Source of the DNA: a virus
Lineage: Duplodnaviria > Caudoviricetes
Length of the DNA stretch: 64,000 nt
Virus record (IMG/VR): IMGVR_UViG_3300038393_000327
Coordinates: 6,683 to 70,682 of that record
Strand: one strand, 5' to 3'
Positions 7,880 through 61,006 of this stretch are shown here, piece by piece; position 1 is the first letter of the stretch; each line of letters begins with the position of its first letter. A model generated the notes under the pieces. That model worked only from the letters and a program-made list of their open reading frames with translations, was not told the DNA's origin and did no database searches. Position numbers and translations under genes: made by a program.

Positions 7880-7908
7880 TTGACAAACATTTTAAATATT
7901 GATATAAT
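7880..7908 (+). promoter_or_regulatory. consensus sigma70 promoter
   Basis: TTGACA-17 nt-TATAAT. Confidence 0.8.
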
Positions 7909-41150: not shown

Positions 41151-41582
41151 TCATAACTTAACTGATTGAACCTTTCCGCCACATGTATTCACATACTTGA
41201 TTGCATGACGTACTGCTTCTATCGCTGTTGCCCCTTGAGCCATTGCTCCTTGAGCTACGTTAGCACCAGACCCCATACTATAGAAATCTGCTTTGATACT
41301 CATAGGATAACCGATAGGATCAATGAGAGCGATATCGCCATCGGGGTGGATTATGATACCTTCGAAATCTTCTAACTTTAATTCTGACAATCCTGGCTTG
41401 TCTGGTTCATCATCTTCGAACCAATCAAAAAACATTGACATCGTAGCATACGAACCAGCAGCCCCTAGAAGAAATCCTGTTTTTGTTTTATGAACTTTCT
41501 TGCCTGCACCAACAATTAATCCACTAGTGGAAATGTTAGAGTCAGCAGCAAGAACTCCGTCACGATATGCTACAATGGTTAT
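41151..41582 (-). CDS. HslV/proteasome-beta-like Ntn peptidase; AUA start
   Basis: (M)TIVAYRDGVLAADS...GAAG...SMGSG..VA.GAM; frame is closed upstream; AAGGAG + 8 nt + ATA overlapping the mazG stop (TAATA). Confidence 0.8.
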   Translation of the reverse strand: MTIVAYRDGVLAADSNISTSGLIVGAGKKVHKTKTGFLLGAAGSYATMSMFFDWFEDDEPDKPGLSELKLEDFEGIIIHPDGDIALIDPIGYPMSIKADFYSMGSGANVAQGAMAQGATAIEAVRHAIKYVNTCGGKVQSVKL

Positions 41583-41911
41583 TAGCGTAACTCCTTGGAT
41601 TGAACAACGGGAATATTATATCTCTCGTGCAGTTTGTCGTAATTCATTTGGAACAATTCTTCTGGTTTAAATCCGAGATCAATAGCTAGATTACACCAAT
41701 ACCACATGACATCACCGAGTTCTAGCTTCATGGCTTCTTCTCGTTTTCCGAGTTCTCGGGGATTTCCTCCGTATCGGATTGTTTTCTTGATGATGTCCAC
41801 TGCTTCTCCGGTCTCCCCAGCCAAACCGAGAGCAGGATACACAACAGCAAACTTATGATCGTCATATTGCGCTGTCTCTTTTACTGAATTAAAAAATATT
41901 TTAAAGTCCAT
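41582..41911 (-). CDS. mazG: MazG-like nucleotide pyrophosphohydrolase
   Basis: ALGLAGETGE..D.IKK...ELGDVMWY...N..KL..RY. Confidence 0.9.
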   Translation of the reverse strand: MDFKIFFNSVKETAQYDDHKFAVVYPALGLAGETGEAVDIIKKTIRYGGNPRELGKREEAMKLELGDVMWYWCNLAIDLGFKPEELFQMNYDKLHERYNIPVVQSKELR

Positions 41912-42083
41912 GTTCTTGGTCAAATCTCCCTTGTTGATATGCAATTACCGCAATCCAATAATATAAAAAGTCTTCTTTACGTCCTCGTTCTGGACGATGA
42001 GTGGCTCTGAAATCCAACATCATGTATTCATTGTATTGATCTTTAGCTTCCTCCATGATTTCTTCATAAGCATCACTTTTCAT
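41901..42083 (-). CDS. hypothetical protein
   Basis: 60 aa, overlaps neighbours. Confidence 0.6.
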   Translation of the reverse strand: MKSDAYEEIMEEAKDQYNEYMMLDFRATHRPERGRKEDFLYYWIAVIAYQQGRFDQEHGL

Positions 42084-42351
42084 GCATGATACCTAAGAGT
42101 TCAGCGTGATCTACAAGGAGTTCATGATACTTATCGCGTGATCCAGTGATCTTATTAGTCAAGTCTTCTAGACAATAGGCCATACCTTTAAGGTCTAAAT
42201 ATTCATCGATTGCAACAGACCACATACTTTTTCCGTCTTGAAGAGTCAGAACGTACTTTCCGGATTGAAAACTATATACTAATTCAATCTTCTCAGGTTG
42301 TAAGGGCTTCCCAGGAAAATCTAAGTCCTGATATTTGGGAAATATTGCCAT
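42073..42351 (-). CDS. hypothetical protein
   Basis: 92 aa with GGAG SD. Confidence 0.55.
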   Translation of the reverse strand: MAIFPKYQDLDFPGKPLQPEKIELVYSFQSGKYVLTLQDGKSMWSVAIDEYLDLKGMAYCLEDLTNKITGSRDKYHELLVDHAELLGIMHEK

Positions 42352-42937
42352 TCCATAACTCCGCTAGATATTGAATTTCTTTTTGGCTATGAGGATCAGA
42401 CCTAAGCTTATAAGCCCTAGCCCAGGCAGCCAAGGAGCCTGTGGTGTACATTTCAGTATACATAGATTGAGGAAGTACCATACGAGCTTGCTCAGGGGCG
42501 ACGCCGATACGAATAAGTTCTTCATAAAGAGTAGCAGCTTCTTTAGCATAATATCTTACTGCCTCTTGCATTTTGTAGGACATCTCGACTTTTTCGTCTG
42601 ATGATCCTTGTTTGACTGACCCTTCTGGTCTTTTCCTCCATATATCCGGTACAAAGAACTCGGGTACATCATCCACGTATCTTCGGGAGACTTCATTTGT
42701 CACAAAGCCAACTGTATGTTTAGCGAATTGTCTAGCCACGAAAATAGGCATCTTTTGCCAAAGAGTTATCTGTACATGTCCGAAAGGAGTCCAGTGCCCA
42801 TGTCGTGCGAGGTAATTAATTAGTTTTTGGTCTCCTTCTCTAAGGATACCGTCGGGTACAATTTTCTTAAAAGATACACGGGCAGCATCTGCCACCCGTA
42901 CATCTGTTCCCATATAATCTATGAGTTTAGCTTCCAA
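42293..42937 (-). CDS. thyX: flavin-dependent thymidylate synthase
   Basis: HWTPF, PIFVARQ..KH...NEVSRRY, EQARMVLP, R.DPHSQKEI. Confidence 0.95.
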   Translation of the reverse strand: MEAKLIDYMGTDVRVADAARVSFKKIVPDGILREGDQKLINYLARHGHWTPFGHVQITLWQKMPIFVARQFAKHTVGFVTNEVSRRYVDDVPEFFVPDIWRKRPEGSVKQGSSDEKVEMSYKMQEAVRYYAKEAATLYEELIRIGVAPEQARMVLPQSMYTEMYTTGSLAAWARAYKLRSDPHSQKEIQYLAELWNGNISQISGLRFSWEALTT

Positions 42938-43645
42938 TTACTTAATCGCTCTCTTAGCAAACACTACATTAAGATAATCATTGATTTCTTCTACAGGAGT
43001 GAAGAAGTTGAAAAATGTAATCGGCATTGCACCACCTGTAGTAACACCAATGACTTGGTATTCCTTTGTTTGATCATTCCAAGTGAACATACTAGAACCT
43101 GAAGAACCAGGAGCTAGATCAGGAGTTGCTCTATAGAATTGACCAGACTGAGACACATCCTTGAATACACCGTCTTCCACATAACCAAGACGACCAGAAG
43201 TCCATGTCATAGAACGACCAAGAGGATATCCTACTAGTTCGACATTCTGACCATAAGTTAAAGTGATATCTCTAGGAGCCACCTTAGCGACATGTTCGAA
43301 ATATGTCTGCTTATCACGAAGCTTAAGCAACGCGAGATCAGACTTGTAAGATTGACCATAAACATCTGCTAGATAGGTCTTAACCCCTGTCTGCCTGTTA
43401 TGATTATCATACAGAGCTTTGTTGACTGTGACGATCTTCCCGTCGTTCTCTGTGCAATGTTTGGCAGTCAGAACATAGGTTTCGACTTCACCTGTCTTGA
43501 CATCGCGATCTGACTTAATGATCTCACCAGAACAATAGTCTCCAATCTGGACACTCGGTTCAAACATCTGATCAGCCATGGGATCAGCCCATGAAGGTGT
43601 GGACAGACCTAAGACCATCAGCACACCAAAAATAAATTTCTTCAT
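42938..43645 (-). CDS. secreted trypsin-like serine protease
   Basis: signal peptide; LTAKHC, DLALL, PGSSGS catalytic triad. Confidence 0.85.
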   Translation of the reverse strand: MKKFIFGVLMVLGLSTPSWADPMADQMFEPSVQIGDYCSGEIIKSDRDVKTGEVETYVLTAKHCTENDGKIVTVNKALYDNHNRQTGVKTYLADVYGQSYKSDLALLKLRDKQTYFEHVAKVAPRDITLTYGQNVELVGYPLGRSMTWTSGRLGYVEDGVFKDVSQSGQFYRATPDLAPGSSGSSMFTWNDQTKEYQVIGVTTGGAMPITFFNFFTPVEEINDYLNVVFAKRAIK

Positions 43646-43656
43646 ATATTTCCCTT

Positions 43657-43821
43657 TTATATATCCGATGGTATCATGCCCTCAAGGATTTCATCATCCA
43701 TCAATCCACTTTCATAGACAGCTAGAACCACTTCGCCTACTGTCAAATCAAACATTTCAAAGAATTCTTCTAAACTAATGTCTAAGTTTTCAATAATCCT
43801 CTCCAATATCTTTTCGTTCAT
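43657..43821 (-). CDS. acidic hypothetical protein (54 aa, not in ORF track)
   Basis: GAAGG SD; MNEKILERIIENLDISLEEFF... Confidence 0.55.
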   Translation of the reverse strand: MNEKILERIIENLDISLEEFFEMFDLTVGEVVLAVYESGLMDDEILEGMIPSDI

Positions 43822-43981
43822 CTTCAATTCCTTCATAGTCTCGGGGGTCTAGTTTGACCCTCTTATATACTTCTTTTCTTGGGTCAAATACTTTCGGATG
43901 AGTATTCTCATGCATCCATTTTGCAACCTGATCTCTTTTCCGTTGTTGACTTCTTCGTTGTTTAGTTTCAGGATCACCCAT
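43790..43981 (-). CDS. hypothetical protein
   Basis: 63 aa. Confidence 0.6.
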   Translation of the reverse strand: MGDPETKQRRSQQRKRDQVAKWMHENTHPKVFDPRKEVYKRVKLDPRDYEGIEDERKDIGEDY

Positions 43982-44544
43982 CAGATAATTCTTAGCTCTT
44001 CAATATTGACTGGTGTATAATTGATTAGTTCAACACAAACACACTTATATCTTTTTGTATCACCATCTGGTTCTGCATTAGTATGAGTGTGTCCATGTAT
44101 ATTTTTTAAGAAATATTTCTTTTCTTTCGGTTCATATTGTTGTGTTCCATTATTCCAAACCATACTGTGTTCAATACGTTCAGCAGAACTAGGGTGTACA
44201 GGAACATGGGTCAACAAGAGACCGAATTCTTTAAACATCCTCCACACATCGATCTTCTTAAAATGATTTTGGAGAATTTGATCTTTCCCGTTGTCATGAT
44301 TACCTAAGATCAATCTCTTTTGACCTTTAAGATGAGAAAGAATATTATTAATATATTCACGAGATTGACCTCCCATGTATACATCACCTAGATGATAAAC
44401 TTTGTCTCCATCTTTGACAACAGAATTCCATTTTTCTACCATATCCCAATCCATTTCTTCTACATCTTTGTAAGGACGATTAGAGTAGGAAATGATATTT
44501 TTATGACCAAAATGCGTGTCACTGACTAACCAAATATCAGCCAT
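43981..44544 (-). CDS. calcineurin-like metallophosphoesterase
   Basis: SDTHFGH, YHLGD, GNHD, THVP, HGHTH. Confidence 0.9.
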   Translation of the reverse strand: MADIWLVSDTHFGHKNIISYSNRPYKDVEEMDWDMVEKWNSVVKDGDKVYHLGDVYMGGQSREYINNILSHLKGQKRLILGNHDNGKDQILQNHFKKIDVWRMFKEFGLLLTHVPVHPSSAERIEHSMVWNNGTQQYEPKEKKYFLKNIHGHTHTNAEPDGDTKRYKCVCVELINYTPVNIEELRII

Positions 44545-45298
44545 ATTCTCTTTCCAGTCTTTTCAAGGAGACCCATTCGAGATCGTAGTCTCCATTCTCA
44601 ACTTCTCTTTTAATTACTAAACCTCTGGACCAGAGACGATTGACTTCTCCTGCCCAATCACTATCGTGTTCTTGATATACACCAGCTACGAGTCCGTGAA
44701 GCCTTCTACCATTAGCGTCAGTACGTATGCTATAATCAAAGGTATGAGTATGACCGCAAGTAACTGAACTAAAATGCTTGGTGAGAAGAGAATAGCCCCC
44801 GTGCTCACCCCCAACAGGACGACCAGATACACCACTAACCATATAGTGTGCATATGTGATCCCATCCACGACAAGACATCCGGGAGTTTGACCTTTGTAT
44901 CGTACGATTTCGTCGTAGTCTTTCTTAAGGTCGAAGTCCTCGAAAGATATTGTTCCATCGAGTTCCGGCTGAAGTTCAAGTAATCTTCTCTGTCTTTCTT
45001 CGTGATTTCCTTCCAAGAAGATCGTCCGTGGTCTCTTTTTCTTTGCCTTCCGAATCGGGGCGAAAAGTCTTTCTGAGAATTCGAGTCCTGCATTTAAGTC
45101 TTTCTTATAGGCTTTGCCATGGAATGAAGCTTTGCCTTTATCATAACCAGACAATGAGGCTAAGTCCCATTGATCACCTAAATTGATGAATACATCTGGT
45201 TTTAAGTCTACGATTAATTTACCAACCCAATCCGCTCGTCTGTTATCATAATCAGGATGAGCATGAGGATCAGGTAATACTAGGTGGATTTTGCTAAT
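44537..45298 (-). CDS. metallophosphoesterase; AUU start
   Basis: upstream extension supplies PDPH and NLGD motifs, then GNHE and GHTH; GGAGG + 8 nt + ATT; in-frame TAG just upstream. Confidence 0.8.
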   Translation of the reverse strand: MSKIHLVLPDPHAHPDYDNRRADWVGKLIVDLKPDVFINLGDQWDLASLSGYDKGKASFHGKAYKKDLNAGLEFSERLFAPIRKAKKKRPRTIFLEGNHEERQRRLLELQPELDGTISFEDFDLKKDYDEIVRYKGQTPGCLVVDGITYAHYMVSGVSGRPVGGEHGGYSLLTKHFSSVTCGHTHTFDYSIRTDANGRRLHGLVAGVYQEHDSDWAGEVNRLWSRGLVIKREVENGDYDLEWVSLKRLEREYG

Positions 45299-45636
45299 CG
45301 CTTCTTCCTCCTTTTTCTATTTCGTTTCTTTTTAGGTACTAACCATCCTCTTCTATTTTTTTCAAGGTAATCCGCTGCGGCTCTAAAAAGGATAGGGTTT
45401 GAATGTCGTCCAAGAAATCTGGAGTTGCAGAAATCACACAATAATCCACGGATTTCAAGAGTTGCGTGATCATGATCAACACTGAGTCTTTTAGTAAATT
45501 CTGACTCGTGTCTTTGGCAAATTGCACAACAGTAATTCTGTTCCTCTAACATTTCTTCGTATTCAGCTTGACTGATACCGTAAGTTCTTTTGATATGGTA
45601 CCATCTAGCTTTTTCTTTTTTATCTTCAGGAGTCAT
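45280..45636 (-). CDS. endonuclease VII-like protein
   Basis: YGIS..EY..ML..Q...CAIC...VDHDH..IRGLLC..CN. Confidence 0.85.
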   Translation of the reverse strand: MTPEDKKEKARWYHIKRTYGISQAEYEEMLEEQNYCCAICQRHESEFTKRLSVDHDHATLEIRGLLCDFCNSRFLGRHSNPILFRAAADYLEKNRRGWLVPKKKRNRKRRKKRLAKST

Positions 45637-46480
45637 CAAATAACTCTGGAACAGCAGGTTCTCTATTCACTTCTGTAAGATGTACAGGTCCATATGAATA
45701 AAGGAAGGATCGAAGACCAGGCCAACAAGATTTCTTGAAAGGACAATAGGAACAATTAACTCCGAGTTTTAAATTACCCGATGCCCCGAAAGGTTCATCT
45801 TTGAAACCCCTCTCCGGTATTTCGGTTGAGGCGATGGTTTCTTTCTTTGCACGATAGGTTTCTGACCAGTCAGTACTTTCATCCTTCGCATGAAGATCAA
45901 GTGTGATATGCCCAAGCGTCTTGTCAACGACGAGGAAGCCAGCTTGTCGTTTGTCCGTGACTTTATCATCGGTCTGGCTAGAATGTAGATACGATTGAAG
46001 CTGTGCCACATATCCGAACGGATCATTTTGCGAAAGCGTTCCGTCTTTAAATTTCTTAAATGAATACGAGGAGGCAGATTTAACATCAACAATGACACCA
46101 TCAATGACCGCATCACGGTGGCCTTTGATACCTTCGATTTCTTGGGTGTCTTGGCGGCCAGTAACTTCATGACCTGATAACTCCGCTAGGAATAAAACAA
46201 CTTCTTCTAATAAATGCCCGATCATAAACTTCATGTAAGTTTCGGGCCGTAGTTTCTCTCCTAACTCTGGTTGATTAATTTCATACCAAAGTTGTTTTTC
46301 ACAAGCTTTACCAATGTTAGACATTCGGAGAGTTGGTTCTCTTACTCTTTGTGTTAGAGCAGTAGAGATAGTTTGTGCAATATTATCTTTAAATCTGTTT
46401 AAGAAGTCCTCGGGGATATTTTCAACCCCCGAAGATAATGTATTTTCTATATCACTTACGAGTGTTGTAATGCTTTTTAT
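45626..46480 (-). CDS. PD-(D/E)xK (Cas4-like) exonuclease; AUA start
   Basis: (M)KSITTLVSDI...EPTLRMSNIGK.C..QLWY...GH.DA...VDVKS...CSYC..K..CW; AAGGAG + 7 nt + ATA. Confidence 0.8.
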   Translation of the reverse strand: MKSITTLVSDIENTLSSGVENIPEDFLNRFKDNIAQTISTALTQRVREPTLRMSNIGKACEKQLWYEINQPELGEKLRPETYMKFMIGHLLEEVVLFLAELSGHEVTGRQDTQEIEGIKGHRDAVIDGVIVDVKSASSYSFKKFKDGTLSQNDPFGYVAQLQSYLHSSQTDDKVTDKRQAGFLVVDKTLGHITLDLHAKDESTDWSETYRAKKETIASTEIPERGFKDEPFGASGNLKLGVNCSYCPFKKSCWPGLRSFLYSYGPVHLTEVNREPAVPELFDDS

Positions 46481-46498
46481 ATTATCACTCCTTTTTGA

Positions 46499-47020
46499 TT
46501 ACCACTTAACTGTTTCGTTTTCTTCTTCTGTCTCAACAGGTTCCTTGTATTCGATGAGATCAATGAGTTTTACTGACTCAAGGCGATTACCTGGACCCAT
46601 AGCTGTTGGATAAACACACAGGGTGATCTGGACATCAGAACCATTTCCAATGAGAATTGTCTCACCCTTCTTGACGATCTTTGTCTTAGGGTCATCATAA
46701 GAACGAAGCATCTTGTCATCCTCGCCATAATATCCAACGAGGACCTTGCCATCTTTGCCGTAGATCACAGGGGGAGTGAAATACACGATCTTACCCTTGA
46801 TCATCTTTGTAGTAGGACGAGAGGCAGCAAAGAAAGAACCATTCTCGTCTTTATTCACCTTCTTCTGGATACCTAGAGCCTTGTATTTATTCCACTCTTC
46901 AGGATCATCCATATAAAGGTTCATTGTCCAACGAACAGCACCTTTGAATTCGTCTGGCTTATAAAGTTTTGTCCAGTATGCTTTACCGTTGAACTGTACG
47001 TATTGTGTTTGTGATACCAT
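46499..47020 (-). CDS. ssb: single-stranded DNA-binding protein (gp2.5-like)
   Basis: GKAYW.KL..PD, IGNGS.V.....Y...G.RLE.V; acidic tail ending in W. Confidence 0.75.
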   Translation of the reverse strand: MVSQTQYVQFNGKAYWTKLYKPDEFKGAVRWTMNLYMDDPEEWNKYKALGIQKKVNKDENGSFFAASRPTTKMIKGKIVYFTPPVIYGKDGKVLVGYYGEDDKMLRSYDDPKTKIVKKGETILIGNGSDVQITLCVYPTAMGPGNRLESVKLIDLIEYKEPVETEEENETVKW

Positions 47021-47035
47021 TAAATTTCCTTTTTG

Positions 47036-47503
47036 TTATATTGTATTCGGTATAAAAATATTAACTGATAACTTAGCTAATTCATCTACTAACTCATTCA
47101 GTTTATTCCCATTATGAGCTTTGACCCATTGGAAATCCCAATTAATCCATTTTACTTTCTTCATGGCTTCGACTGCTTCCCATAAATCTAGATGGGTTTT
47201 AGTCTTCCATTTCCCTGTTGCTCCCATGACTACGTATTTGGAGTCACTCACGATAGTCACATCATAAGGCTTCGCTCCCTTCTCTATATCGTCTAAAATG
47301 TCAGGATACCAGAGAAGACTATCAACAGCTAACATAGCTTCGAATAAAGCTTGTAATTCCATCTCATTGTTAGTTGTTTCGTCTTTACGACCTGCTCTCC
47401 AATGCTGAATTTGAGATTTAGGATAGTCAGGGGGTTCGATTACAAATGCCCAACCACCAGGACCAGGATTTCCGAAACACGCTCCATCAGTGAATATCCT
47501 CAT
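47036..47503 (-). CDS. rnhA: ribonuclease HI
   Basis: FTDGAC.GNPGPGG, TNNEMEL, SDSKY, WVKAH, NELVDELA. Confidence 0.92.
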   Translation of the reverse strand: MRIFTDGACFGNPGPGGWAFVIEPPDYPKSQIQHWRAGRKDETTNNEMELQALFEAMLAVDSLLWYPDILDDIEKGAKPYDVTIVSDSKYVVMGATGKWKTKTHLDLWEAVEAMKKVKWINWDFQWVKAHNGNKLNELVDELAKLSVNIFIPNTI

Positions 47504-47521
47504 CGTTGTACTCTTTTAACA

Positions 47522-49351
47522 CTAGTGAATGTTAGCATACTTATCACCAAATTGAATTCCGATTGCAAGCTCTCTATTGAGCTTTAGTTTTTCATTAGTC
47601 TTTTTGATTGATTGCTCTAAGAGTTTTGTTGCACCTTCTCGGTGTCCTTTCTTTATATGGAGGACGATTTCGTCATGGAATTGGGCGGTGAGTTGTTCTC
47701 TTTGTTGCAACACTTCACGAACCCAGAGGTCAAATACAAATGACGCAGTTCCTTGAATAAGAGTTGAGAACACGTCTTTCTCATTTCTGAGTGAGTACCA
47801 GAACCCGGATACAGGATTTCGCATCCACATTTGACCATCAATTTCCCTAATCTTCTGTTGTTTTGCTACTACTTTAATAGCCCAATTAAGAGACCAATAA
47901 CCATCGAATAGTTCTTTGGCTTTCTCAAGTGTGATACCGAGAGTTTTAACAAGTTTAGGAGGAAACGCTCCGTATTGCATAGCGTAACCACCATTCTTAG
48001 CCATATCTCTAATACGACTCTTTGACTTATCACCGTTCTTATAGGCTTGAACCTCTTCTTCAGTCATCATCTTTGCAGTGACAGCTACTTTAAGATGAGG
48101 ATCATACCCATCTTCCAACATAGTTTTCACATAGCCGGGATCAAGTGGATAAATGTAATGTTGCTTAAGTCTATCCTCAAGAGAGGACATGTCCGCACCA
48201 CACAACTCATATCCATCATCAGCAACCAAAGATGATCTAATTGCTTCTGCATATAGTCTGTCGGGTTTGGGGAGATTGACACAAGGATGTTTGTGTTTAA
48301 AACGGAGAGTGTTAGTCAACCCATTGACTTGGGCTTTGACGTATCCATCTTCTTGTGTTTCTAAAAGACCACGGATAATAGGGATACGATGAGATAGAAC
48401 TCCCAATCCGTCTAAGTGTTCGAGTTCTGGAACTTTTTCATAGAGTTCCTTAACACTAGGACAAATACCCTTACCGTGTTTCTGATTGACTTGGGGAACA
48501 GGGTCTTTGCCTTTAGGATATTCAAAGAGACGAGGAACCCACCCTAGAGAAAATAACCACTCTTTGATCTGTTGAGGACTGGTAGGACTAGGTTCTTCTT
48601 CACCAACAACGACCTCGATCTCTTCTGTTTCAATAGGGAGATTGTTGAGAGAACATAAATCGAACCACTCTAATCCCTTAGCAGTGAGAGTACCGTCTTT
48701 CTTAGTGAACCTCTTAGGTCTAGTCTTCGTACCATACTTAACCACTTTGGGCATTACGCCCCGGAGAATATTGATTTTCTTTGCCTGCTCTTTCTCTAAT
48801 TCAATAAGAGCTTTCTTGGCATATTCAATATCAATTTTCCATCTAGACACTTCTGCCAGATGAGCGCAATGCATTTTAAATGTTAGATAATCAATGAATG
48901 CCCAGACACCATTTTCAGACTGATAAATCTTCTTGAGTTTATTCCATTGGGCATTCCATAGATGGGTGTTGATCTTAACGTCTTCTTCGCATCTATGTAT
49001 GTATTCTTCTATTGTTAGATTAAACCAATCATTGATCTTAGGTTTAGGGACATTAAAATCATCCCCGTAACTTTCAAGACCATGTTGATATCGTTGAGGT
49101 TCTAAATACCATGACAACGACAGCGTATCTACAAACTTACAGTTGAGCTTAATACCAAGGAGCTTTTCTAAAACAGGAATATCCCAACGTTTAATATTAT
49201 GACCAATGAAAATAGTCACCTTCTTTAAAAACTCTCTCATATCCTCATAATCAACGAAGGATACAAGACCTAACTCCTTGGTATAAGTACTCATACAATA
49301 CAGTTTAGTAGGTTTCAGGCCATCGCCTTCTACGTCTATAACTGCCTCTAT
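47522..49351 (-). CDS. polA: family A DNA polymerase with 3'-5' exonuclease; AUA start
   Basis: ExoI DVEGDGL lies 5' of the first ATG; GHNI..WD, DMSSLE, R..AK...YA..YG, QFHDE; AGGAG + 7 nt + ATA. Confidence 0.9.
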   Translation of the reverse strand: MEAVIDVEGDGLKPTKLYCMSTYTKELGLVSFVDYEDMREFLKKVTIFIGHNIKRWDIPVLEKLLGIKLNCKFVDTLSLSWYLEPQRYQHGLESYGDDFNVPKPKINDWFNLTIEEYIHRCEEDVKINTHLWNAQWNKLKKIYQSENGVWAFIDYLTFKMHCAHLAEVSRWKIDIEYAKKALIELEKEQAKKINILRGVMPKVVKYGTKTRPKRFTKKDGTLTAKGLEWFDLCSLNNLPIETEEIEVVVGEEEPSPTSPQQIKEWLFSLGWVPRLFEYPKGKDPVPQVNQKHGKGICPSVKELYEKVPELEHLDGLGVLSHRIPIIRGLLETQEDGYVKAQVNGLTNTLRFKHKHPCVNLPKPDRLYAEAIRSSLVADDGYELCGADMSSLEDRLKQHYIYPLDPGYVKTMLEDGYDPHLKVAVTAKMMTEEEVQAYKNGDKSKSRIRDMAKNGGYAMQYGAFPPKLVKTLGITLEKAKELFDGYWSLNWAIKVVAKQQKIREIDGQMWMRNPVSGFWYSLRNEKDVFSTLIQGTASFVFDLWVREVLQQREQLTAQFHDEIVLHIKKGHREGATKLLEQSIKKTNEKLKLNRELAIGIQFGDKYANIH

Positions 49352-49381
49352 AATTATTCTCCTATCTCGATCTATACAAAT

Positions 49382-49409
49382 ATTATATCAAACTGAAATT
49401 ATTTGTCAA
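49382..49409 (-). promoter_or_regulatory. sigma70 promoter for polA
   Basis: TTGACA-16-TATAAT. Confidence 0.7.
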
Positions 49410-49412
49410 GTC

Positions 49413-49523
49413 TTATTTATCAAAAATAATAAGATAAGCCATATAAACTAAAATTCCTACCAGTATCCAAACCGAAAAGATAGCAAATAAAAGTAAAGCT
49501 ACAACAATATAATCTGTAATCAT
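49413..49523 (-). CDS. 36 aa membrane peptide (not in ORF track)
   Basis: ATGA overlap with the helicase stop; MITDYIVVALLLFAIFSVWILV... Confidence 0.5.
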   Translation of the reverse strand: MITDYIVVALLLFAIFSVWILVGILVYMAYLIIFDK

Positions 49524-51148
49524 TTTATAGGCATCCTATATTCATCATCTAATTGTATTTCACGAAGCTTACGGGACATAACATCCATAACACACATTCC
49601 ACCTGGACCTGTCTGTCCACCTAGACGTGCCTTATCAATGTTCATGTAGATTGTATTACGGACTGTAGGATCAGGACTCAACTTGTCTCTGGTGAGTTTG
49701 ATAATGGTGTTACTGACGTTCTCGATATTCCTAGAGCCTCTGGTTCTGCCGTTGTCATTAGTATGTGAAATCATGATGATACAAATACGAAGTTCTTTGG
49801 CAAGAAGTTTAAGTCTCTGAGAAATTCTATCGAGTTTCAATCTTCCGTCATCATCTTGTAGTCCTGTTGCCAACCAAGTGATGTGATCAAGAAAGATAAA
49901 ATCACACTTGGCACCACTGGCTAAGAAACGGATGTTATCTAAAAGAGCTTGTTCGTCTTGGAGTTCAAATGACGTATAGATATGGACTCTATCGTCTGCT
50001 CCACCTACAGCTTTCTGATATCCTTCGAAGATATCTGTTACAGACAACCCACTATCAGGGAGAGTAGCTGGGAGACCCAACTCATATCCTGCGATAGCTT
50101 TAATCGTCGTACCGGAGTCTTCTTCTAAGTGAATGATACCGATGTTTGATTTGGTAGTTTTGAGGAGATGGTGCTGCAATGCCCTGAAGAATTCAGTTTT
50201 ACCAACACCGGATGCGTTGGCTTCAGGACTGGCAGGGACGCCAGTGATACACACGATCTCACCTTTATGGAGACCGTAAAGCATTGCATTCAAGGAACTA
50301 AAAGGATAAGTTCCGATCTGGTCTTCTTTTACTTCTTCAAGAGCAGATTTAATATCTGCAAACGAAGAAATGATATTGTCAGGAGAATATCGTTTGGCGT
50401 TATCCCAGACACTGAACAAGCCGCTACTATCGTTATTTTGAAGATAGTCATTAGCGTCTTTAAATTTCTGGATTTTGACCAGATAGACTCTTGTGAAATC
50501 AAATAAAGCACTGATTTCTTTCGTTGTTTTTCGATCTACTTCATCATTGTCTAGGCAAAGATAAATCTTCTTAAATGAATTGATATAGTCTCTGTGCTTG
50601 ATACACACTTTCATTGCTTGGGCAAGATTTCCACTAGGCAACGATACCGCTGCCGTCTTCCCCCTAGTAACTTGCCAAATGCTAGGGGCATCGTATTCAC
50701 CAGCAGTAATGGTGATACTTTCTTTGCTTCCAGGATCAAACCTGTCCATTCCGAAGAGATCAGGGTCTTTCATATCCCCAACCCCTCGGAACTTCTTTTC
50801 TTTCATATTTCTGATTTTAACCCCTCGATTATCTGGATAGGGAAATCCAGTCTCGAAAGGTTCACCATCAATGAATTTGGTACTGATCCCGTAGAAACGT
50901 AACGTTGTCTCTGTCAACCCACGATGAGGGTAGAACGAAGAAGTTATAGTTTGTGGTATGATGATTTCTCTCTCAGCCACTGGTAGTAATTCTTCCAATT
51001 GCCCTCCTTCGTTTCTATTGAAGTTTTTTCCTCCACATTTTCCGTAACAATATCCTGACCCGTCTTCACGAACACAGTACGCATCAGAAGAGTCTCCACA
51101 AGGACACGGTATATGTCGTTTAACAAATTTTCCACTTTCGTTGTTTAT
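49520..51148 (-). CDS. T7 gp4-like primase-helicase; AUA start, probable internal UUG start at 50998
   Basis: in-frame upstream Zn motif CPCGDSSDA...GYCYGKC; TOPRIM ITAGEYD/LDND; GVGKT, FLDHI, ISH, RGS; GGAGG + 7 nt + ATA. Confidence 0.9.
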   Translation of the reverse strand: MNNESGKFVKRHIPCPCGDSSDAYCVREDGSGYCYGKCGGKNFNRNEGGQLEELLPVAEREIIIPQTITSSFYPHRGLTETTLRFYGISTKFIDGEPFETGFPYPDNRGVKIRNMKEKKFRGVGDMKDPDLFGMDRFDPGSKESITITAGEYDAPSIWQVTRGKTAAVSLPSGNLAQAMKVCIKHRDYINSFKKIYLCLDNDEVDRKTTKEISALFDFTRVYLVKIQKFKDANDYLQNNDSSGLFSVWDNAKRYSPDNIISSFADIKSALEEVKEDQIGTYPFSSLNAMLYGLHKGEIVCITGVPASPEANASGVGKTEFFRALQHHLLKTTKSNIGIIHLEEDSGTTIKAIAGYELGLPATLPDSGLSVTDIFEGYQKAVGGADDRVHIYTSFELQDEQALLDNIRFLASGAKCDFIFLDHITWLATGLQDDDGRLKLDRISQRLKLLAKELRICIIMISHTNDNGRTRGSRNIENVSNTIIKLTRDKLSPDPTVRNTIYMNIDKARLGGQTGPGGMCVMDVMSRKLREIQLDDEYRMPIK

Positions 51149-51151: not shown

Positions 51152-51244
51152 TTATCCTCCAAATATTGCTGCAATGAATGGTGCAGACATAAATGAAAAT
51201 AGACAAATCCAAAAAATTGCCCAAAGTTTATGTTCACTTGTCAT
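51152..51244 (-). CDS. 30 aa membrane peptide (not in ORF track)
   Basis: MTSEHKLWAIFWICLFSF...; its last codons provide the primase SD. Confidence 0.5.
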   Translation of the reverse strand: MTSEHKLWAIFWICLFSFMSAPFIAAIFGG

Positions 51245-51717: not shown

Positions 51718-51931
51718 GGAATGCCATTGCCTCGTCGTAGTATTCCCAATTATCTACACCAGCAGCCTCAAGTTTATCTAACTTTTCAAGACGCTTTCGA
51801 AGATAACAAGTCTCATTCCATTGTTCTTGGAGAAATTGGACGGCATCTTCTTTAGTCCCTTCTTCTGCAATGGCATTGATGAATGCAGCAGGGACATGAG
51901 GATATTCTTTAATTATCATATAATTTAACAC
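51710..51931 (-). CDS. conserved phage hypothetical protein
   Basis: LEAAGVDNWEYY motif common in phages. Confidence 0.7.
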   Translation of the reverse strand: MLNYMIIKEYPHVPAAFINAIAEEGTKEDAVQFLQEQWNETCYLRKRLEKLDKLEAAGVDNWEYYDEAMAFHD

Positions 51932-52631
51932 CCTTGTTGAATAGTAGGTCCATAGCTCTCAGAGATTGCTCATAAACGTACTTTATAGACTCGTCAGAGG
52001 CCAACCAAGCACAAGACAGTGGTCGGTACTCTACTCCATAGGTTTTCGCTCTGAAGGCCCCTCTAGAGCCGTATAAACGCCTACGCTTATCGTCATTATC
52101 CCACAGCATAGATGCAGGATAGAGGACAGCATCGAGTTGCTTAACGGCTTCTCGACACATATCGAAATGGGTAGAGTCATTAGGATCAAGCCAGTTACCC
52201 CAACCAATATGGATATGGCCACCAGCAGTCCTGAATGGTTCTGTTGTCTCTGGTGGTATATTCTCTTCTCCGGTATATGCATTGTAATCAGGCATACAAC
52301 CAAGGAGTTTGGCTGTCTCAGGAAGATTCTCGAAATAGTCTGGATCGAAATGAGCAGTAGGTTCAAAGACGATCATGTGGTCAGACATGAAGCCTTCAAC
52401 TCTTGCATATAGATTATCTAGAACCAGTCCGATGTTCTTCGTGAAATCAAAGAAGGAAGATGCCGGGTCTGTATTGAACTCTAGAGCGACACCATCAACT
52501 TGGATGGCACCACCGGGAACCTTATGAGGTTCTTCTTTTGTTCCTGGAATCCAATCATGAGCAGAGACGAAATCTCCCTCTAGGTTTTTGATAAAGAGTT
52601 CTGGGTCACAACCAATTGTAAAATCAACCAT
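51909..52631 (-). CDS. phiEco32-like COOH.NH2 ligase type 2 (copy 1)
   Basis: TIGCDPELF, QVDGVALEFN..P, GC.PD.NAY, RTAGGHIHIG, K.YGVEYR. Confidence 0.9.
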   Translation of the reverse strand: MVDFTIGCDPELFIKNLEGDFVSAHDWIPGTKEEPHKVPGGAIQVDGVALEFNTDPASSFFDFTKNIGLVLDNLYARVEGFMSDHMIVFEPTAHFDPDYFENLPETAKLLGCMPDYNAYTGEENIPPETTEPFRTAGGHIHIGWGNWLDPNDSTHFDMCREAVKQLDAVLYPASMLWDNDDKRRRLYGSRGAFRAKTYGVEYRPLSCAWLASDESIKYVYEQSLRAMDLLFNKGVKLYDN

Positions 52632-52635
52632 GTTT

Positions 52636-52818
52636 TTAAAACCAAGTCAGATCAGAGGCATGAGGGAAACGGATAGCTAGAATGAATATCAGTATCCAGA
52701 TAGAGAAGAAAACGCATATTCCTCTACTATCCCAATCCCATAAATGTGGAAGTCTCCATGACACGAACATTCCTACTAGAATGGGTACTATTAGTGCTAT
52801 CAGAATTGAAGTGATCAT
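52636..52818 (-). CDS. small 2-TM protein
   Basis: 60 aa hydrophobic. Confidence 0.6.
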   Translation of the reverse strand: MITSILIALIVPILVGMFVSWRLPHLWDWDSRGICVFFSIWILIFILAIRFPHASDLTWF

Positions 52819-54022: not shown

Positions 54023-54155
54023 TAATTATTTTTTCTCTTTATACGGCCAGAGGTGTCTTAAAGCTAAAGGGACACGGCCGGTAGTTATTATGAATTTAAC
54101 ATTTAGAAAGATAGAGATATTATATATTACCCTTCCTATCTAACTTAATACAGAT

Positions 54156-54188: not shown

Positions 54189-54887
54189 TTAGTCGTAATG
54201 ATCGTACATTGACCATCCAGCTTGACCTGGCATACCCCAAAAATCTCTAATTTCTTTCTCTCTTTCAGAAGTATTTTCTATATTCTCGTTGACAGCACCG
54301 GGGAAGTCTGACTCCCAGATGTCCCACTCATAATAAGGTCTACCAGTTATAGGAGAGACCATAACACGAGATTGACGAGTCCCCCTGTTGCTTAGTTTGG
54401 TTGCACTGAATGCATCCTTATCCCCAATATACATGAACCCGTGAGCCCATTTATGCTTCAGATAAGTATGACCAACACTCTCCAAAGCAGGACTATTCAT
54501 CTGATCCAACAAGACGATCTTTTCGATCCTTCTGTTGAAATACAAATTGTTCTGTTGGAGTTCATCGATAGCCAAGATGTGTTGTGGACTAACGAGAAAA
54601 GCCTCTCCCTTGATACAAGCATGGATCATTACTTTCTCATCGAAGACAACTGGATAATCTGTCCCAGCACTCATCATCTTGAGATTGGTATTGACCGTCA
54701 TAGCTTTACCTAGATACTTAGCTCCCTCTAGGTATTTATTATTCTCTAGTGTATCACGCTTGAGATTGTCATACACAAACAACAAAATATCTCGCCTGAA
54801 CCGAAGATCATGAAAATCAGGAGATTGCCAAGCCCGTGTCTCAAGCTTCGTTAACAGAGAAATATATCGATCAATTTTCTCAGCCAA
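54189..54887 (-). CDS. gamma-glutamylcyclotransferase (AIG2-like) fold protein
   Basis: LLFVYDNLKRD resembles FVYGTLKRG; IKGEAF, L..IDELQ. Confidence 0.65.
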   Translation of the reverse strand: MAEKIDRYISLLTKLETRAWQSPDFHDLRFRRDILLFVYDNLKRDTLENNKYLEGAKYLGKAMTVNTNLKMMSAGTDYPVVFDEKVMIHACIKGEAFLVSPQHILAIDELQQNNLYFNRRIEKIVLLDQMNSPALESVGHTYLKHKWAHGFMYIGDKDAFSATKLSNRGTRQSRVMVSPITGRPYYEWDIWESDFPGAVNENIENTSEREKEIRDFWGMPGQAGWSMYDHYD

Positions 54888-55920
54888 CGTGAACCTCCTG
54901 TTCAGCTTTCCTCTTGTTCATTTCGATCTTCTTTTCTAGCTTATTTTCTTTGTTGTTCTTTGTTAGTTCTTGATATGCAATAGTTATCGAACGAAGATAA
55001 TTTGTGAGGAGCATGAACATAGTTGTAGCATCATCGATATTTTCCTTGAAGAGTTTGTGGATTTCAGACTCTTCGAAGCTTGCCATAGCGATGAAGCCGT
55101 CCGCTGTGAACAGATCGACCTCTTCCAAAATGTCCACTATTTGTTTTGACAAAGAGATCGTCCTCTCGAAAGGGGGATATTTTAAAATCTCAATATCACC
55201 GACCTTTTGGACAGTCTGGACTGCTGGAAGTTTACCCTTCTTCTTTTCTTCTTCAGCTTTCCTCTCGTTGAACAGAGTTCCTCTCTTGATTTCCTTGAAA
55301 TAATCATCATTAGAAGCTAAGAATTCTTTACCATTCTCGTCTTTGATTTTCTCCCATCCTGAAGAATTCAACAAGAGAGGAGGTTGGTCATTCACGATAA
55401 GGACTGCTCGGCCTGATGTAGAAATCCACTTATTAAGGATGACTTCTTGAATAAATGGATCACTAAGATCAGCACTCCCTTGTGACCCTTTAAGTCTTGT
55501 CAGGAGTGGAGCAATCTTCGCGAGAGCATACTGTCTGGAATCGCTATCTTTCTTGGTGTCAAGTTCTTGAATGTGTTCTTTCTGAGCATCTGGAACATAT
55601 ACGTTATACACTGTTCCGTTGTGCATGAAATAGATATCACGCTTAGCCGAATGATAGACTTGGATAGGCTGAACATTATCCATATGCACTTCACCAGCAG
55701 ATGCATTCCTCAAATGCACCCATCGTTCAGCGTCTTCGTTGTCCTTCAAAATCTTATAAATCTTATCGGGATCGACTTTCGCTGGCATGTCCTTGATAAC
55801 TTGAATTTTGTTATTCGCCTTAATCAGAACGCCATATCCATGCTCATTGTTATGGACAGCATTGAACAACAGATCAAAAGGGAGTGTATATCCCGGCAAG
55901 AGTTGGAAAATTGAACACAT
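54880..55920 (-). CDS. class II glutamine amidotransferase (copy 1)
   Basis: N-terminal Cys (MCS), N.HGYG, HLR.A..G, MHNG, DS. Confidence 0.85.
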   Translation of the reverse strand: MCSIFQLLPGYTLPFDLLFNAVHNNEHGYGVLIKANNKIQVIKDMPAKVDPDKIYKILKDNEDAERWVHLRNASAGEVHMDNVQPIQVYHSAKRDIYFMHNGTVYNVYVPDAQKEHIQELDTKKDSDSRQYALAKIAPLLTRLKGSQGSADLSDPFIQEVILNKWISTSGRAVLIVNDQPPLLLNSSGWEKIKDENGKEFLASNDDYFKEIKRGTLFNERKAEEEKKKGKLPAVQTVQKVGDIEILKYPPFERTISLSKQIVDILEEVDLFTADGFIAMASFEESEIHKLFKENIDDATTMFMLLTNYLRSITIAYQELTKNNKENKLEKKIEMNKRKAEQEVHVG

Positions 55921-55925
55921 TCAGA

Positions 55926-56687
55926 TTAACCTTTCAATGCCTTCGCATAAATTTCAACAGTAGTCCCTTGAAGACCTGGAGCACTGTTAACTTCAAGGAC
56001 ATATGCCTTGCCAGTTTGCTTGTGGACCACGATATCAACAGCGCCGAAATCAAGTCCGATCTCAGAGACAGTATCGATTGCAGCTTGGATCACGCTCTGA
56101 TGAGGATTAACATTAGCCCTCTGATAGATGAAACCATTGTCTAGGTTCCTGATCTTCCAGTTGATGTCTTCCTTGTCATGCTTTTCAGCATATTCCTTGG
56201 AAAGTGTCTTCCGTTGGATATCAACAGACTTCCCATTAATGACATGAACACGATACTCTTCTGTCTTCGGAATATACTTCACATACAAAGGAGCCTTGAC
56301 GAAATCCTTTGGGTTAAGGTTCTTATGCATTAGCACAATACCGGCCCCAGAATGCCCATTCAGAACGGTTCTGGCTACAACCCAATATCCCTCCCCAACC
56401 CACTCTAAAGCCTTCTCATGGCTCTCTGTGAACTCAGGAAGGTATGGTGAACCCTTAAGATGCTTGAAGAACTTCAGTTTATCCGAAGTCAATGCCACCT
56501 TCTGAGGATGGTTGATGATCTTGCACTTCAAGACTTCATTAGGAACTTGTGTAGCTCCCCAATTGATGACTTGCTTTTGAAGACCCCCTTTGAACTTTGA
56601 ACCTTCGTTCTTGATCCTCTTGATACCCAATGCTTCTTTAAGTGCCTTGGCACCTTCCGAATTCGGGTTATACGAAAAGATATGCAT
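55926..56687 (-). CDS. ATP-grasp ligase (RimK-like)
   Basis: INWG, EYRVHV, DFGAVDI, LEVNSAPG. Confidence 0.9.
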   Translation of the reverse strand: MHIFSYNPNSEGAKALKEALGIKRIKNEGSKFKGGLQKQVINWGATQVPNEVLKCKIINHPQKVALTSDKLKFFKHLKGSPYLPEFTESHEKALEWVGEGYWVVARTVLNGHSGAGIVLMHKNLNPKDFVKAPLYVKYIPKTEEYRVHVINGKSVDIQRKTLSKEYAEKHDKEDINWKIRNLDNGFIYQRANVNPHQSVIQAAIDTVSEIGLDFGAVDIVVHKQTGKAYVLEVNSAPGLQGTTVEIYAKALKG

Positions 56688-57865: not shown

Positions 57866-57874
57866 AGTTTATCC

Positions 57875-58504
57875 TTAATCGATTTGCCAACCGAGAACGT
57901 GTGAAAGATATTTCGAAATCACCCATCCGAGTTCATCACTCTTGACATGGACGATGTATTTGTTCGGTTGTATCCATCCTACATACTGGTTCTTGTAGAA
58001 GACTTTAATGATGCCTTGCTCATCGATACTTAAAGCAATCGAGAGATTAATGGCAATTTCACCAACACCCCCTAATTTCCTAAGACCATGCAGAGCCTGT
58101 TCAAGACTTGGATATCTTCGTTGAGCCATTTCAACAAATCCCTGAGAGAACAACAGAGAAGTGACATTGACTATCTTCTTCTTAGCACTTCCAGGAAGAT
58201 ACTGGAATTTAGAATTATGTTGATTAATCCCTTGCTTAACCTTCCTTACAGGAATTCTGGAGAGATATGCTGTTAATTCAAATTTCTTATAGTTAACATA
58301 TCCCAATGGGATACTGGAAAAATCGAAATGATCATCTGTGAACTTGATTTGGTGTTTAGGAGGACCCCCGCCGCCATATTCGAGATCATATAATTCTAAC
58401 ATCTGGCCTCCACCTTCTTTAAAATAGTATGGAGTGCCCTTATACATGAAGATACTCTCAGCAATTTTCTGAGGAATATCTTGAGCAATGATTGTACATT
58501 TCAT
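57875..58504 (-). CDS. hypothetical protein of the amidoligase cluster
   Basis: 209 aa; PLGYVN...YLSR.P.R..KQG. Confidence 0.7.
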   Translation of the reverse strand: MKCTIIAQDIPQKIAESIFMYKGTPYYFKEGGGQMLELYDLEYGGGGPPKHQIKFTDDHFDFSSIPLGYVNYKKFELTAYLSRIPVRKVKQGINQHNSKFQYLPGSAKKKIVNVTSLLFSQGFVEMAQRRYPSLEQALHGLRKLGGVGEIAINLSIALSIDEQGIIKVFYKNQYVGWIQPNKYIVHVKSDELGWVISKYLSHVLGWQID

Positions 58505-61002: not shown

Positions 61003-61006
61003 GGCA

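Follow-up and report, generated by a model that had tools for sequence, protein, structure and literature searches.

Probable near-cognate start codons in the replication region

How are five conserved genes translated if their reading frames hold essential motifs upstream of the first ATG, GTG or TTG codon? The question arises in the replication region of a soil-metagenome phage of the phiM6/HMO-2011-like type, whose complete genome measures 70.7 kb; 64 kb of it form the window analyzed here. An earlier note had placed the starts of these genes at ATA or ATT codons preceded by Shine-Dalgarno (SD) sequences, and every coordinate was confirmed, all on the minus strand. The set comprises a primase-helicase, a family A DNA polymerase (PolA), a Cas4-like exonuclease and an HslV-like peptidase, each with ATA, and a metallophosphoesterase (MPE) with ATT. 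These five DNA-replication and repair genes almost certainly carry near-cognate start codons behind strong SDs. The motifs said to lie upstream of the first canonical codon, namely the Cys4 zinc finger, ExoI, DxH/GD and the Thr following ATA, were all located there, and the structural and early genes have ordinary starts, as the note had also stated, with ATG in structural genes and ATG, GTG or TTG in early genes. No paper describing a near-cognate start habit in these phage genes was found.

In their stop-to-stop frames, 51 (primase-helicase), 31 (PolA), 58 (exonuclease), 54 (MPE) and 58 (HslV-like) codons precede the first ATG, GTG or TTG; the remaining clear genes of at least 100 aa have about 15 or fewer, with a single exception of 29. 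Orthologue alignment, which the earlier note had called for, places all five near-cognates codon-for-codon on ATG, GTG or TTG starts, and other relatives keep or swap near-cognates at these sites. PHROG profile matches begin at residues 2 to 6 in four of the extended proteins and at residues 18 to 28 in the exonuclease. Synonymous codon differences outnumber non-synonymous ones in the lead regions of the primase (23 vs. 14), the HslV-like peptidase (20 vs. 10) and PolA (8 vs. 4), indicating that these N-terminal leads evolve as coding sequence under purifying selection. The SD lies 7–8 nt from the start at all five codons, with duplex energies of −7.3 to −11.6 kcal/mol that exceed 83% of the same genome's canonical starts in strength; among 453 internal in-frame ATA/ATT codons, all five rank in the top 3.3% (p ~4e-8).

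Primase-helicase and DNA polymerase

The primase-helicase (542 aa; 49520..51148, minus strand) has the start region GGAGG(51160-51156)-ATAAAAT-ATA(51148-51146). PHROG 239 matches residues 6–532, Pfam places Toprim_2 at 150–236 and DnaB_C at 283–510, and a CPCG...C..C Cys4 zinc finger (residues ~15–39) precedes TTG 50998, which is the first canonical codon; the domain order is that of T7 gp4-type proteins, with an N-terminal Cys4, TOPRIM and a DnaB-like helicase. The closest relative, L003 (78% identity), retains the ATA at the equivalent position, and L014 has it as well. A hydrophobic ORF of 30 codons (51152..51244, minus strand, ATG 51244) terminates in the same frame with a TAA (51154-51152) that ends 3 nt before the ATA, and translational coupling from this ORF to the primase start is possible. 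Just past the zinc finger, an internal AAGGAGG (51009-51003) with TTG (50998-50996) provides a candidate second start (50996..51009, minus strand) with an SD energy of −12.2 kcal/mol, and most relatives, although not all, have an in-frame canonical codon with an SD at the equivalent site. The internal TTG is a candidate start for a zinc-finger-less primase-helicase isoform; if both isoforms exist, a weak AUA for the full-length protein would tilt their ratio to the short form.

PolA (609 aa; 47522..49351, minus strand) has the start region AGGAG(49363-49359)-AATAATT-ATA(49351-49349), and the codon before it, an ATT at 49354 with 4-nt spacing, may serve as an alternative start. PHROG 17 matches residues 4–605 and DNA_pol_A covers 243–605. 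The ExoI motif IDVEGDG (residues 5–11) lies upstream of the first ATG, with D6, E8 and G11 invariant (alignment A1). Both the N-terminal ExoI DxE and the palm and fingers of a family A polymerase with 3′-5′ exonuclease are present. The ATA aligns with ATG in L003, CTG in L001, ATT in L004 and ATA in the Rhizobium phages RHph_N3_13 and RHph_N3_19; ATT is also found in L010 and ATA in L023 and L030, and several of these near-cognates apparently arose independently of one another. The nearest relatives (P0001–P0004) have canonical PolA starts. Approximately 30 nt upstream of the PolA ATA, a TTGACA and a TATAAT spaced 16 nt apart, the −10 element preceded by TG, make up a perfect promoter of the sigma-70 type (49382..49409, minus strand). 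No other 12/12 match occurs in 40.9–52.7 kb, and the window as a whole contains two against a chance expectation of 0.09.

Exonuclease, metallophosphoesterase and HslV-like peptidase

The PD-(D/E)XK, Cas4-like exonuclease (284 aa; 45626..46480, minus strand) matches Pfam PDDEXK_1 and PHROG 1990, and its start region reads AAGGAG(46493-46488)-TGATAAT-ATA(46480-46478). Its profile matches miss the extreme N-terminus, for which the support comes from orthologue alignments beginning at residues 1–4. Some relatives have ATG, GTG or TTG at this position, while ATA is found in L020, L023/24 and L030; in L004 (ATA) and L001 (ATC) a near-cognate lies about 10 codons further upstream.

The calcineurin-like MPE (253 aa; 44537..45298, minus strand) has the start region GGAGG(45311-45307)-AAGAAGCG-ATT(45298-45296), the start falling within the last codons of the EndoVII gene, whose stop is at 45282-45280. 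Pfam Metallophos begins at residue 6 and PHROG 221 at residue 3, and the DxH/GD metal-binding motifs (LPDPHAHPD...NLGDQWD) lie upstream of TTG 45154. The ATT aligns with TTG in L053 and L054 and with ATG in L007, L010 and L045, and the MPE start is ATA in L001 as opposed to ATG in L004.

The HslV-like Ntn peptidase (143 aa; 41151..41582, minus strand) has the start region AAGGAG(41596-41591)-TTACGCTA-ATA(41582-41580), the ATA overlapping the MazG stop (TAATA). Pfam Proteasome reaches 28.7 bits (cut-off 22.4), and PHROG 1040 matches residues 2–142. Homologues begin MTTIAYRDGVLAADS, with MTTIAYRDG given as a homologue N-terminus, and initiation at the ATA-ACC of this gene would yield (fM)T-I-V-A-Y-R-D-G, placing directly after the initiator Met a Thr that is the predicted catalytic first residue once the Met is removed. 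The ATA aligns with GTG or TTG in L001, L004 and L030, and L088/L089 (71% identity) share both the ATA and the TAATA arrangement.

Distribution among related phages

A census was taken of approximately 80 related loci, de-duplicated at 95% and extending about 10 kb either side of PolA, in which a near-cognate site was counted only with an SD of −5 kcal/mol or stronger. Of 177 ORFs for DNA enzymes, 23 have a near-cognate start, as do 3 of the 395 remaining ORFs (Fisher p = 7e-10, kinship ignored). The 26 codons consist of 17 ATA, four ATT, four ATC and one CTG. The relatives' exonuclease, MPE, EndoI and EndoVII genes are among those with ATA, ATT or ATC. The earlier note had treated the five genes as one replication operon or module; the census bears out a single functional class, but with its own promoter ahead of PolA the region is not one simple operon.

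Near-cognate genes number five in the phage studied here and three apiece in L001, L023 and L030; L004 has two or three, and every RHph phage has two. The cultured Rhizobium phages RHph_N3_13, RHph_I3_11 and RHph_N3_19 and Sinorhizobium phage phiM6 have genomes of 68–70 kb, similar in size to ours, with a similar replication-region gene order, the same amidoligase module and PolA proteins 52–55% identical to ours. The RHph PolA, like ours, has an ATA and no canonical start at its true N-terminus, and EndoI begins with ATA or ATC in the RHph phages and phiM6. Unlike our phage, which has more near-cognate genes than any of these, phiM6 begins PolA, primase and MPE with ATG and the exonuclease with TTG. 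Their presence in cultured, viable Rhizobium phages indicates that the near-cognate starts are not a metagenome artifact. On the evidence of these genomes, the putative near-cognate habit is a property of the whole phiM6/HMO-2011-like group, and an evolutionarily labile one.

The same phages illustrate a consequence for annotation, as standard gene finders shorten or miss genes with near-cognate starts and broken N-termini pass into function predictions and protein databases. The RHph polymerase is annotated in GenBank at 577 aa, without ExoI, and EndoI is missing from the RHph_N3_19 record and shortened in that of RHph_N3_13.

Weak initiation as a probable tuning knob

The best explanation, and probably the correct one, is that genuine SD-driven initiation at AUA or AUU sets a low output of DNA-processing enzymes, with the start codon acting as a labile tuning knob. 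The five intact genes would be translated from AUA (four) or AUU (one) by ordinary SD-guided 30S initiation with the initiator tRNA, aided by unusually strong SDs at optimal spacing and, at four sites, perhaps by closeness to the stop of an upstream ORF. A look for RNA runs containing this phage listed none. A low set-point of synthesis is the likely effect, given that AUA and AUU initiate far less well than AUG in model bacteria: initiation at AUA, AUU, AUC or CUG in E. coli reaches about 1–2% (0.02–3%) of that at AUG (10.1101/063800), a value that may differ in the phage host, and an AUG-to-AUA change in T4 rIIB lowered translation by about 85% (PMC5499595). The weakness of AUA is not guaranteed, however, since an AUA mRNA with an optimized initiation region matched the activity of an AUG mRNA in E. 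coli extract (PMC5499595). The affected products, which are DNA-processing enzymes, nucleases and a peptidase, may be needed in small amounts or be harmful in excess, and they would be carried on mRNAs that are otherwise well expressed, in the case of PolA even behind a perfect promoter. PolA and the primase-helicase are not obviously low-demand proteins, an observation that speaks against attenuation. A start position that switches between ATG/GTG/TTG and ATA/ATT/ATC/CTG among relatives is what would be expected of a quantitative tuning knob. We infer selection for low output from this pattern, although near-neutral decay of start codons offset by strong SDs, with no adaptive attenuation, would produce the same one.

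Alternative explanations

It is possible, if not the likelier reading, that initiation at these sites depends on termination-reinitiation, in which ribosomes ending an upstream ORF restart on the spot with laxer codon checking and output stays in constant proportion to upstream translation. An upstream stop is close by (−19 to +18 nt) at four of the five sites: the HslV-like start has its TAATA overlap, the MPE start lies within EndoVII by 19 nt, the exonuclease start follows a stop at +18 nt, and the primase start follows the 30-codon ORF at +3 nt. In relatives, stops are often immediately adjacent, as in TAA-CTG at L001 PolA, TAA-ATA at L023 PolA (the EndoVII stop) and TGA-ATA at the L030 exonuclease. 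However, the PolA ATA is about 60 nt from the previous ORF and behind its own promoter, approximately 13 of the relatives' 29 near-cognate sites have no stop of a 70-aa or longer ORF nearby, and tight packing is also usual around canonical starts in these genomes, such that stop proximity does not discriminate.

Conditional control is a less probable alternative. A translational regulon, in which output tracks the initiation fidelity of the infected cell and the replication enzymes are switched as a group, is rather unlikely, as is its combination with an input from host state (IF3 level, ppGpp, nutrients or temperature) or from an unknown phage factor relaxing IF3 proofreading. Single genomes carry several near-cognate genes, such as the five here and the three of L001; these genes are confined to one functional class, and infC is a precedent for an AUU sensed by IF3. 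In E. coli extracts, nutrient limitation and ppGpp depress non-AUG starts more, and an IF3 dose response is seen (PMC5499595), making a host-side version possible. The earlier note had suggested, as an example, control exerted by the phage through IF3 or initiator choice, which gains no support from the genome: neither a tRNA nor a homologue of IF3_N, IF3_C or SUI1 is encoded in the complete phage genome, and about 40 of its larger ORFs, scanned with Pfam, returned no translational domains. The signal is also dispensable, as close relatives have ATG, GTG or TTG at the same sites (ATG for PolA in the closest, and ATG, TTG or GTG at the same codon of the MPE, exonuclease and HslV-like genes in others). 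Co-occurrence within the clade is confounded by shared ancestry, and the five sites have ordinary local folding and no common motif besides the SD. A tunable attenuator fits a start codon that is not fixed among relatives better than an obligatory regulon signal does. There is only a modest chance that the replication, recombination and nuclease genes of the phiM6/HMO-2011 group share a regime in which AUA, AUU, AUC or CUG with extra-strong SDs reads host initiation fidelity; if so, a translational regulon would gate genome replication to host physiology, whether IF3/ppGpp state or a phage factor. Some members of the group can be grown in culture with their hosts (RHph phages on Rhizobium, phiM6 on S. 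meliloti 1021), making the choice between attenuator and host-state sensor directly testable.

It is very improbable that the true starts are the first downstream ATG or TTG codons, with untranslated remnants upstream, or that these are start-loss pseudogenes. Short automatic calls exist (the 94-aa HslV-like P0121 in a public collection and the 577-aa RHph PolA), and the primase-helicase has a strong internal SD and TTG, but truncation would delete the ExoI motif, zinc finger, DxH/GD metal ligands and catalytic Thr1 from extensions that are under purifying selection. Outside the primase-helicase, the SDs of internal canonical codons are weak or absent (+0.9 to −3.9 kcal/mol), and pseudogenes are at odds with a complete genome and viable cultured relatives.

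Least credible of all are sequencing or assembly error, a base modification read as A or T, recoding by frameshift or readthrough fusion, and a variant code, even though the phage group bears an amidoligase/ATP-grasp/GATase module and the primase ATA is in frame with the small upstream ORF across a single TAA: the source contig, checked as the earlier note had advised, is 16x deep with zero differences, and over 45189-45339, a stretch that includes the MPE ATT, its sequence is matched exactly by a contig from a separate study. The same or other near-cognates recur in independent metagenomes and isolates. Fusions are ruled out by orthologues whose canonical starts stand alone at precisely these codons, and where an internal ATA was checked, in the ExoI segment of PolA, the closest relative has Ile. 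For the module, modification of host peptidoglycan has been proposed in relatives (PMC6256558); a DNA-modifying role is conjecture.

Comparison with known systems

T7 gene 4 produces gp4A, the full-length primase-helicase, and gp4B, which arises from an internal start and lacks the zinc finger. The phage primase shares with it the order of Cys4 zinc finger, TOPRIM and DnaB-type helicase, and likewise has an in-frame canonical start with a strong SD (TTG 50998) just after the zinc finger. Both starts of T7 gene 4 are AUG, whereas the full-length form here would depend on a weak AUA.

The closest likeness to tuned weak initiation is found in E. coli infC (IF3) and pcnB (poly(A) polymerase I), in which an SD-preceded AUU replaces AUG and the product is held controlled or low; as would be the case here, initiator tRNA reads a mismatched codon against which IF3 discriminates. 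The phage differs in that codon identity varies freely among relatives (ATG, GTG, TTG, ATA, ATT, ATC or CTG), AUA rather than AUU dominates (17 of 26 in the census), and the autoregulatory logic of IF3 is not evident. Whereas infC and pcnB are the only two confirmed non-canonical starts in E. coli (10.1101/063800), a single 70-kb phage has AUA at four and AUU at one of five genes that all belong to one functional class, and its group offers a large natural data set of strong SD and near-cognate codon combinations that may set protein dose.

Putative Near-Cognate Start Sites

Five conserved genes on the minus strand appear to begin at near-cognate codons preceded by a strong Shine-Dalgarno (SD) sequence. 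Read directly from the sequence, the SD, spacer and codon at all five sites match the earlier note exactly: GGAGG-7 nt-ATA for the primase-helicase (51148), AGGAG-7 nt-ATA for the DNA polymerase PolA (49351), AAGGAG-7 nt-ATA for the exonuclease (46480), GGAGG-8 nt-ATT for the metallophosphoesterase (MPE; 45298) and AAGGAG-8 nt-ATA for the HslV-like peptidase (41582). The source contig shows no differences at 16x depth, and contig X3, from another study, is identical around the MPE ATT (45189-45339).

Pfam and PHROG profiles identify the products as a primase-helicase, PolA, a Cas4-like PD-(D/E)XK exonuclease, a metallophosphoesterase and an HslV-family peptidase. Profile matches start at residues 2-6 of the extended protein in four of the five; those of the exonuclease start at residues 18-28, and its N-terminus is covered by orthologue alignments from residues 1-4. 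The N-terminal extensions include the Cys4 zinc finger of the primase-helicase, the ExoI DxE motif of PolA, the DxH and GD metal ligands of the MPE and, in the HslV-like peptidase, whose homologues start with MTTIAYRDGVLAADS, the Thr required as residue 1 of an Ntn hydrolase.

In the stop-to-stop frames, the first ATG, GTG or TTG is preceded by 51 codons in the primase-helicase, 31 in PolA, 58 in the exonuclease, 54 in the MPE and 58 in the HslV-like gene; among the remaining clear genes the figure does not exceed about 15, apart from one at 29. Since runs of 31-58 codons without a canonical start are not rare in themselves (9-28%), it is homology and the SDs that carry the argument. Duplex energies between SD and anti-SD range from -7.3 to -11.6 kcal/mol for the five codons. 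Of 453 in-frame ATA/ATT codons internal to genes, only 3.3% reach -7.3 kcal/mol, giving a chance of about 4 × 10⁻⁸ for five out of five; of the canonical starts of the same genome, only 17% do.

The Phage Genome and Its Relatives

The window corresponds to positions 6683-70682 of one virus record of 70,682 bp, which carries direct terminal repeats, is rated complete and derives from a soil metagenome assembly with a depth of ~16x. Structural genes occupy the plus strand at ~8.5-37.2 kb; genes for replication and nucleotide metabolism, together with the early genes, are on the minus strand. The phage's family A polymerase shares 52-55% identity with the polymerases of the cultured Rhizobium phages RHph_N3_13, RHph_I3_11 and RHph_N3_19 and of Sinorhizobium phage phiM6, a member of the HMO-2011-like group (PMC6256558). 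As in the RHph phages and phiM6, an amidoligase/ATP-grasp/glutamine-amidotransferase/GGCT module is present. This amidoligase-type module (54189-63643, minus strand) comprises a GGACT protein, two class-II GATase-like proteins, an ATP-grasp protein and a Peptidase_C26/GATase, accompanied by a NadR-like cytidylyltransferase-AAA_28 protein; its COOH-NH2 ligase lies at 51909-52646, and the same module occurs in phiM6, PA11 and RIO-1. Outside the window, at genome positions 2043-3485 (L090, 2046-3443, minus strand), is encoded a 466-aa protein with DUF2828, DUF7788 and weak VWA domains, which is unusual for a phage.

Megablast gave no match to the region among GenBank phages, and the single PolA protein as query found no related loci among viral or genome contigs. 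With an alignment as query, metagenome contigs yielded 80 loci, and about 90 related loci (L001 and so on) were fetched overall. The closest long relative is the contig carrying the related polymerase P0003 (74% identity), where the exonuclease and MPE are called at full length. Contigs X2 and X4 represent strains 90-99% similar to the window phage. X2, from another soil metagenome, lacks 107 nt within 49414-49522 and with them the 40-codon ORF that separates the stop of the primase-helicase gene from the promoter of PolA.

Start Codons of Orthologues

The orthologue alignment proposed as a check in the earlier note bears out the assignments: for each of the five genes, some relatives have a canonical start at exactly the codon that aligns with the ATA or ATT. 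The PolA site is ATG in L003 (77% identical) and phiM6; the MPE site is TTG in L053 and L054 and ATG in L007, L010 and L045; the HslV-like site is GTG or TTG in L001, L004 and L030; the exonuclease site is ATG, GTG or TTG in L022, L036, L006, L083 and L084; and the primase-helicase site is ATG or TTG in many loci. Near-cognate codons also recur among relatives. PolA has ATA in RHph_N3_13, RHph_N3_19, L023/24 and L030, ATT in L004 and L010, and CTG immediately after TAA in L001. L014 shares the primase-helicase ATA, as does L003, the closest relative (78%), and the exonuclease ATA is found at the equivalent position in L020, L023/24 and L030, with a near-cognate about 10 codons further upstream in L004 (ATA) and L001 (ATC). 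At the MPE site L001 has ATA and L004 ATG, and L088/L089 (71% identical, from two other runs) share both the HslV-like ATA and its overlap with the preceding stop as TAATA.

Change within the extensions follows the pattern of coding DNA, synonymous codon differences outnumbering non-synonymous ones by 23 to 14 in the primase-helicase, 20 to 10 in the HslV-like gene and 8 to 4 in PolA. Canonical starts are present in the nearest PolA relatives (P0001-P0004, P0006 and P0008); given these and the full-length calls in the 74% relative, several near-cognates of this phage are recent and the trait is labile.

Among cultured phages, the GenBank PolA proteins of RHph_N3_13 and RHph_N3_19 are annotated from an internal ATG. 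The T7-type endonuclease I (EndoI) of cultured Rhizobium and Sinorhizobium phages and metagenomic relatives has ATA, ATC or ATT at the family N-terminus (L005 16322-16756; L007 17304-17744; L010 14757-15197; L006 16668-17096; L004 14191-14616). Its GenBank entries are short in RHph_N3_13 and phiM6, and in the RHph_N3_19 record it is unannotated, an antisense hypothetical ORF being given instead.

Census across Relatives

Coding-strand ORFs of all loci were clustered, and each family N-terminus was estimated from homologues with unambiguous canonical starts. ORFs were counted when they had no canonical start at that N-terminus and an SD-preceded near-cognate there, with an SD of -5 kcal/mol or lower required. 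The set covered ~10 kb on each side of PolA, with copies at least 95% identical removed and the HslV-like family left out as too small. This family-based census replaced an all-strand screen for conserved start-less leads that was swamped by antisense shadow ORFs. SD strength at near-cognate sites relative to canonical orthologues is biased by the census's own SD threshold and is not counted as evidence.

Near-cognate starts were found in 7 of 69 PolA genes, 2 of 47 primase-helicases, 2 of 21 MPEs, 2 of 16 EndoVII genes, 5 of 14 Cas4-like exonucleases and 5 of 10 T7-type EndoI genes, and in 3 of 395 members of all other families (RNR, ThyX, MazG, the amidoligase module and others). The DNA enzymes (23/177) thus differ from the others (3/395) with an odds ratio of 19.5 (Fisher p = 7 × 10⁻¹⁰, without phylogenetic correction). 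The codons counted were ATA (17), ATT (4), ATC (4) and CTG (1). These putative near-cognate starts are a clade-wide, class-specific habit.

Probable Dose Setting and Alternative Explanations

In the simplest reading, initiator tRNA would start on AUA or AUU by ordinary SD-guided initiation. Such starts are weak in E. coli, where AUA, AUU, AUC and CUG yield 1-2% (0.02-3%) of AUG (10.1101/063800); in figures cited in PMC5499595, translation of T4 rIIB falls by ~85% on an AUG-to-AUA change, and AUA in a phage hydrolase gives 7.5% of AUG. A dose-setting device fits three findings, namely the enrichment in nucleases, polymerase, primase and a peptidase, the extra-strong SDs, and the frequent switching between ATG and near-cognates. 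The PolA gene lies behind a perfect TTGACA-16-TATAAT promoter (49382-49409, minus strand), the sole one in the region, which suggests strong transcription with throttled translation of this first cistron. Two perfect TTGACA-N16/17-TATAAT promoters were found in the window versus 0.09 expected by chance; the second (7880-7908, plus strand) stands at the head of the structural arm, ~0.6 kb before the first ORF on the plus strand.

Termination-reinitiation may contribute, as for four of the five starts the distance to an upstream stop is between -19 and +18 nt and several relatives' near-cognates directly follow a stop; that it is not required is shown by the PolA site. Conditional control of the near-cognate starts is unlikely. 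The earlier note had suggested a coordinated translational control layer, for example phage modulation of IF3 or of initiator selection, but no phage-encoded handle on initiation fidelity was found: the genome has no homologue of IF3_N, IF3_C or SUI1, ARAGORN detected no tRNA or tmRNA, and ~40 of the larger ORFs, when scanned, showed nothing translational. Beyond the SD the five sites have no motif in common, and their local folding is ordinary (-5.6 versus -7.5 ± 3.6 kcal/mol at canonical starts). That close relatives use canonical codons at these positions speaks against a signal that is obligatory. A host-side version may still apply. In E. coli extracts, nutrient limitation, ppGpp and the dose of IF3 weigh more heavily on non-AUG mRNAs, and an AUA mRNA can match AUG when its initiation region is optimal (PMC5499595).

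Frameshift or readthrough fusions are rejected by orthologues with free-standing starts at these exact codons, and truncated proteins or pseudogenes by the motifs that would go missing, the selection on the extensions and the viability of cultured relatives. The genetic code is taken as standard, since the internal ATA checked, within the ExoI segment of PolA, corresponds to Ile in the closest relative, and sequencing error is contradicted by depth, independent samples and relatives.

Five gaps of ~166-417 nt on the minus strand contain small frames without any ATG, GTG or TTG (2084-2272, 3670-3822, 5796-5939, 8296-8406 and 54026-54139). The four frames searched have no homologue in the fetched loci, the translations inspected look non-coding, and the window has no Rfam match at the gathering threshold. 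The frames were rejected as further near-cognate genes; the gaps are probably non-coding control regions, with small near-cognate-initiated genes a lesser possibility.

Comparison with Known Systems

Near-cognate initiation as an attenuator is already known from infC and pcnB. These two are the only confirmed natural cases in E. coli (10.1101/063800). The literature searched, on AUA/ATA initiation in phages at large and in the HMO-2011-like group, contained no account of many near-cognate starts in one functional class across a phage group that includes cultured members with mis-annotated polymerases.

In the primase-helicase, an AAGGAGG followed after 4 nt by an in-frame TTG (50996-51009, minus strand) lies directly past the zinc finger and, at -12.2 kcal/mol, is the strongest SD of the genome scan. 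At the equivalent codon L003 carries an ATG, 5 nt after a GGAG, and in most relatives a canonical codon with an SD before it occurs 10-15 codons past the zinc finger. By analogy with T7 gp4A/gp4B, this arrangement suggests an isoform pair in which the ATA would throttle the full-length form.
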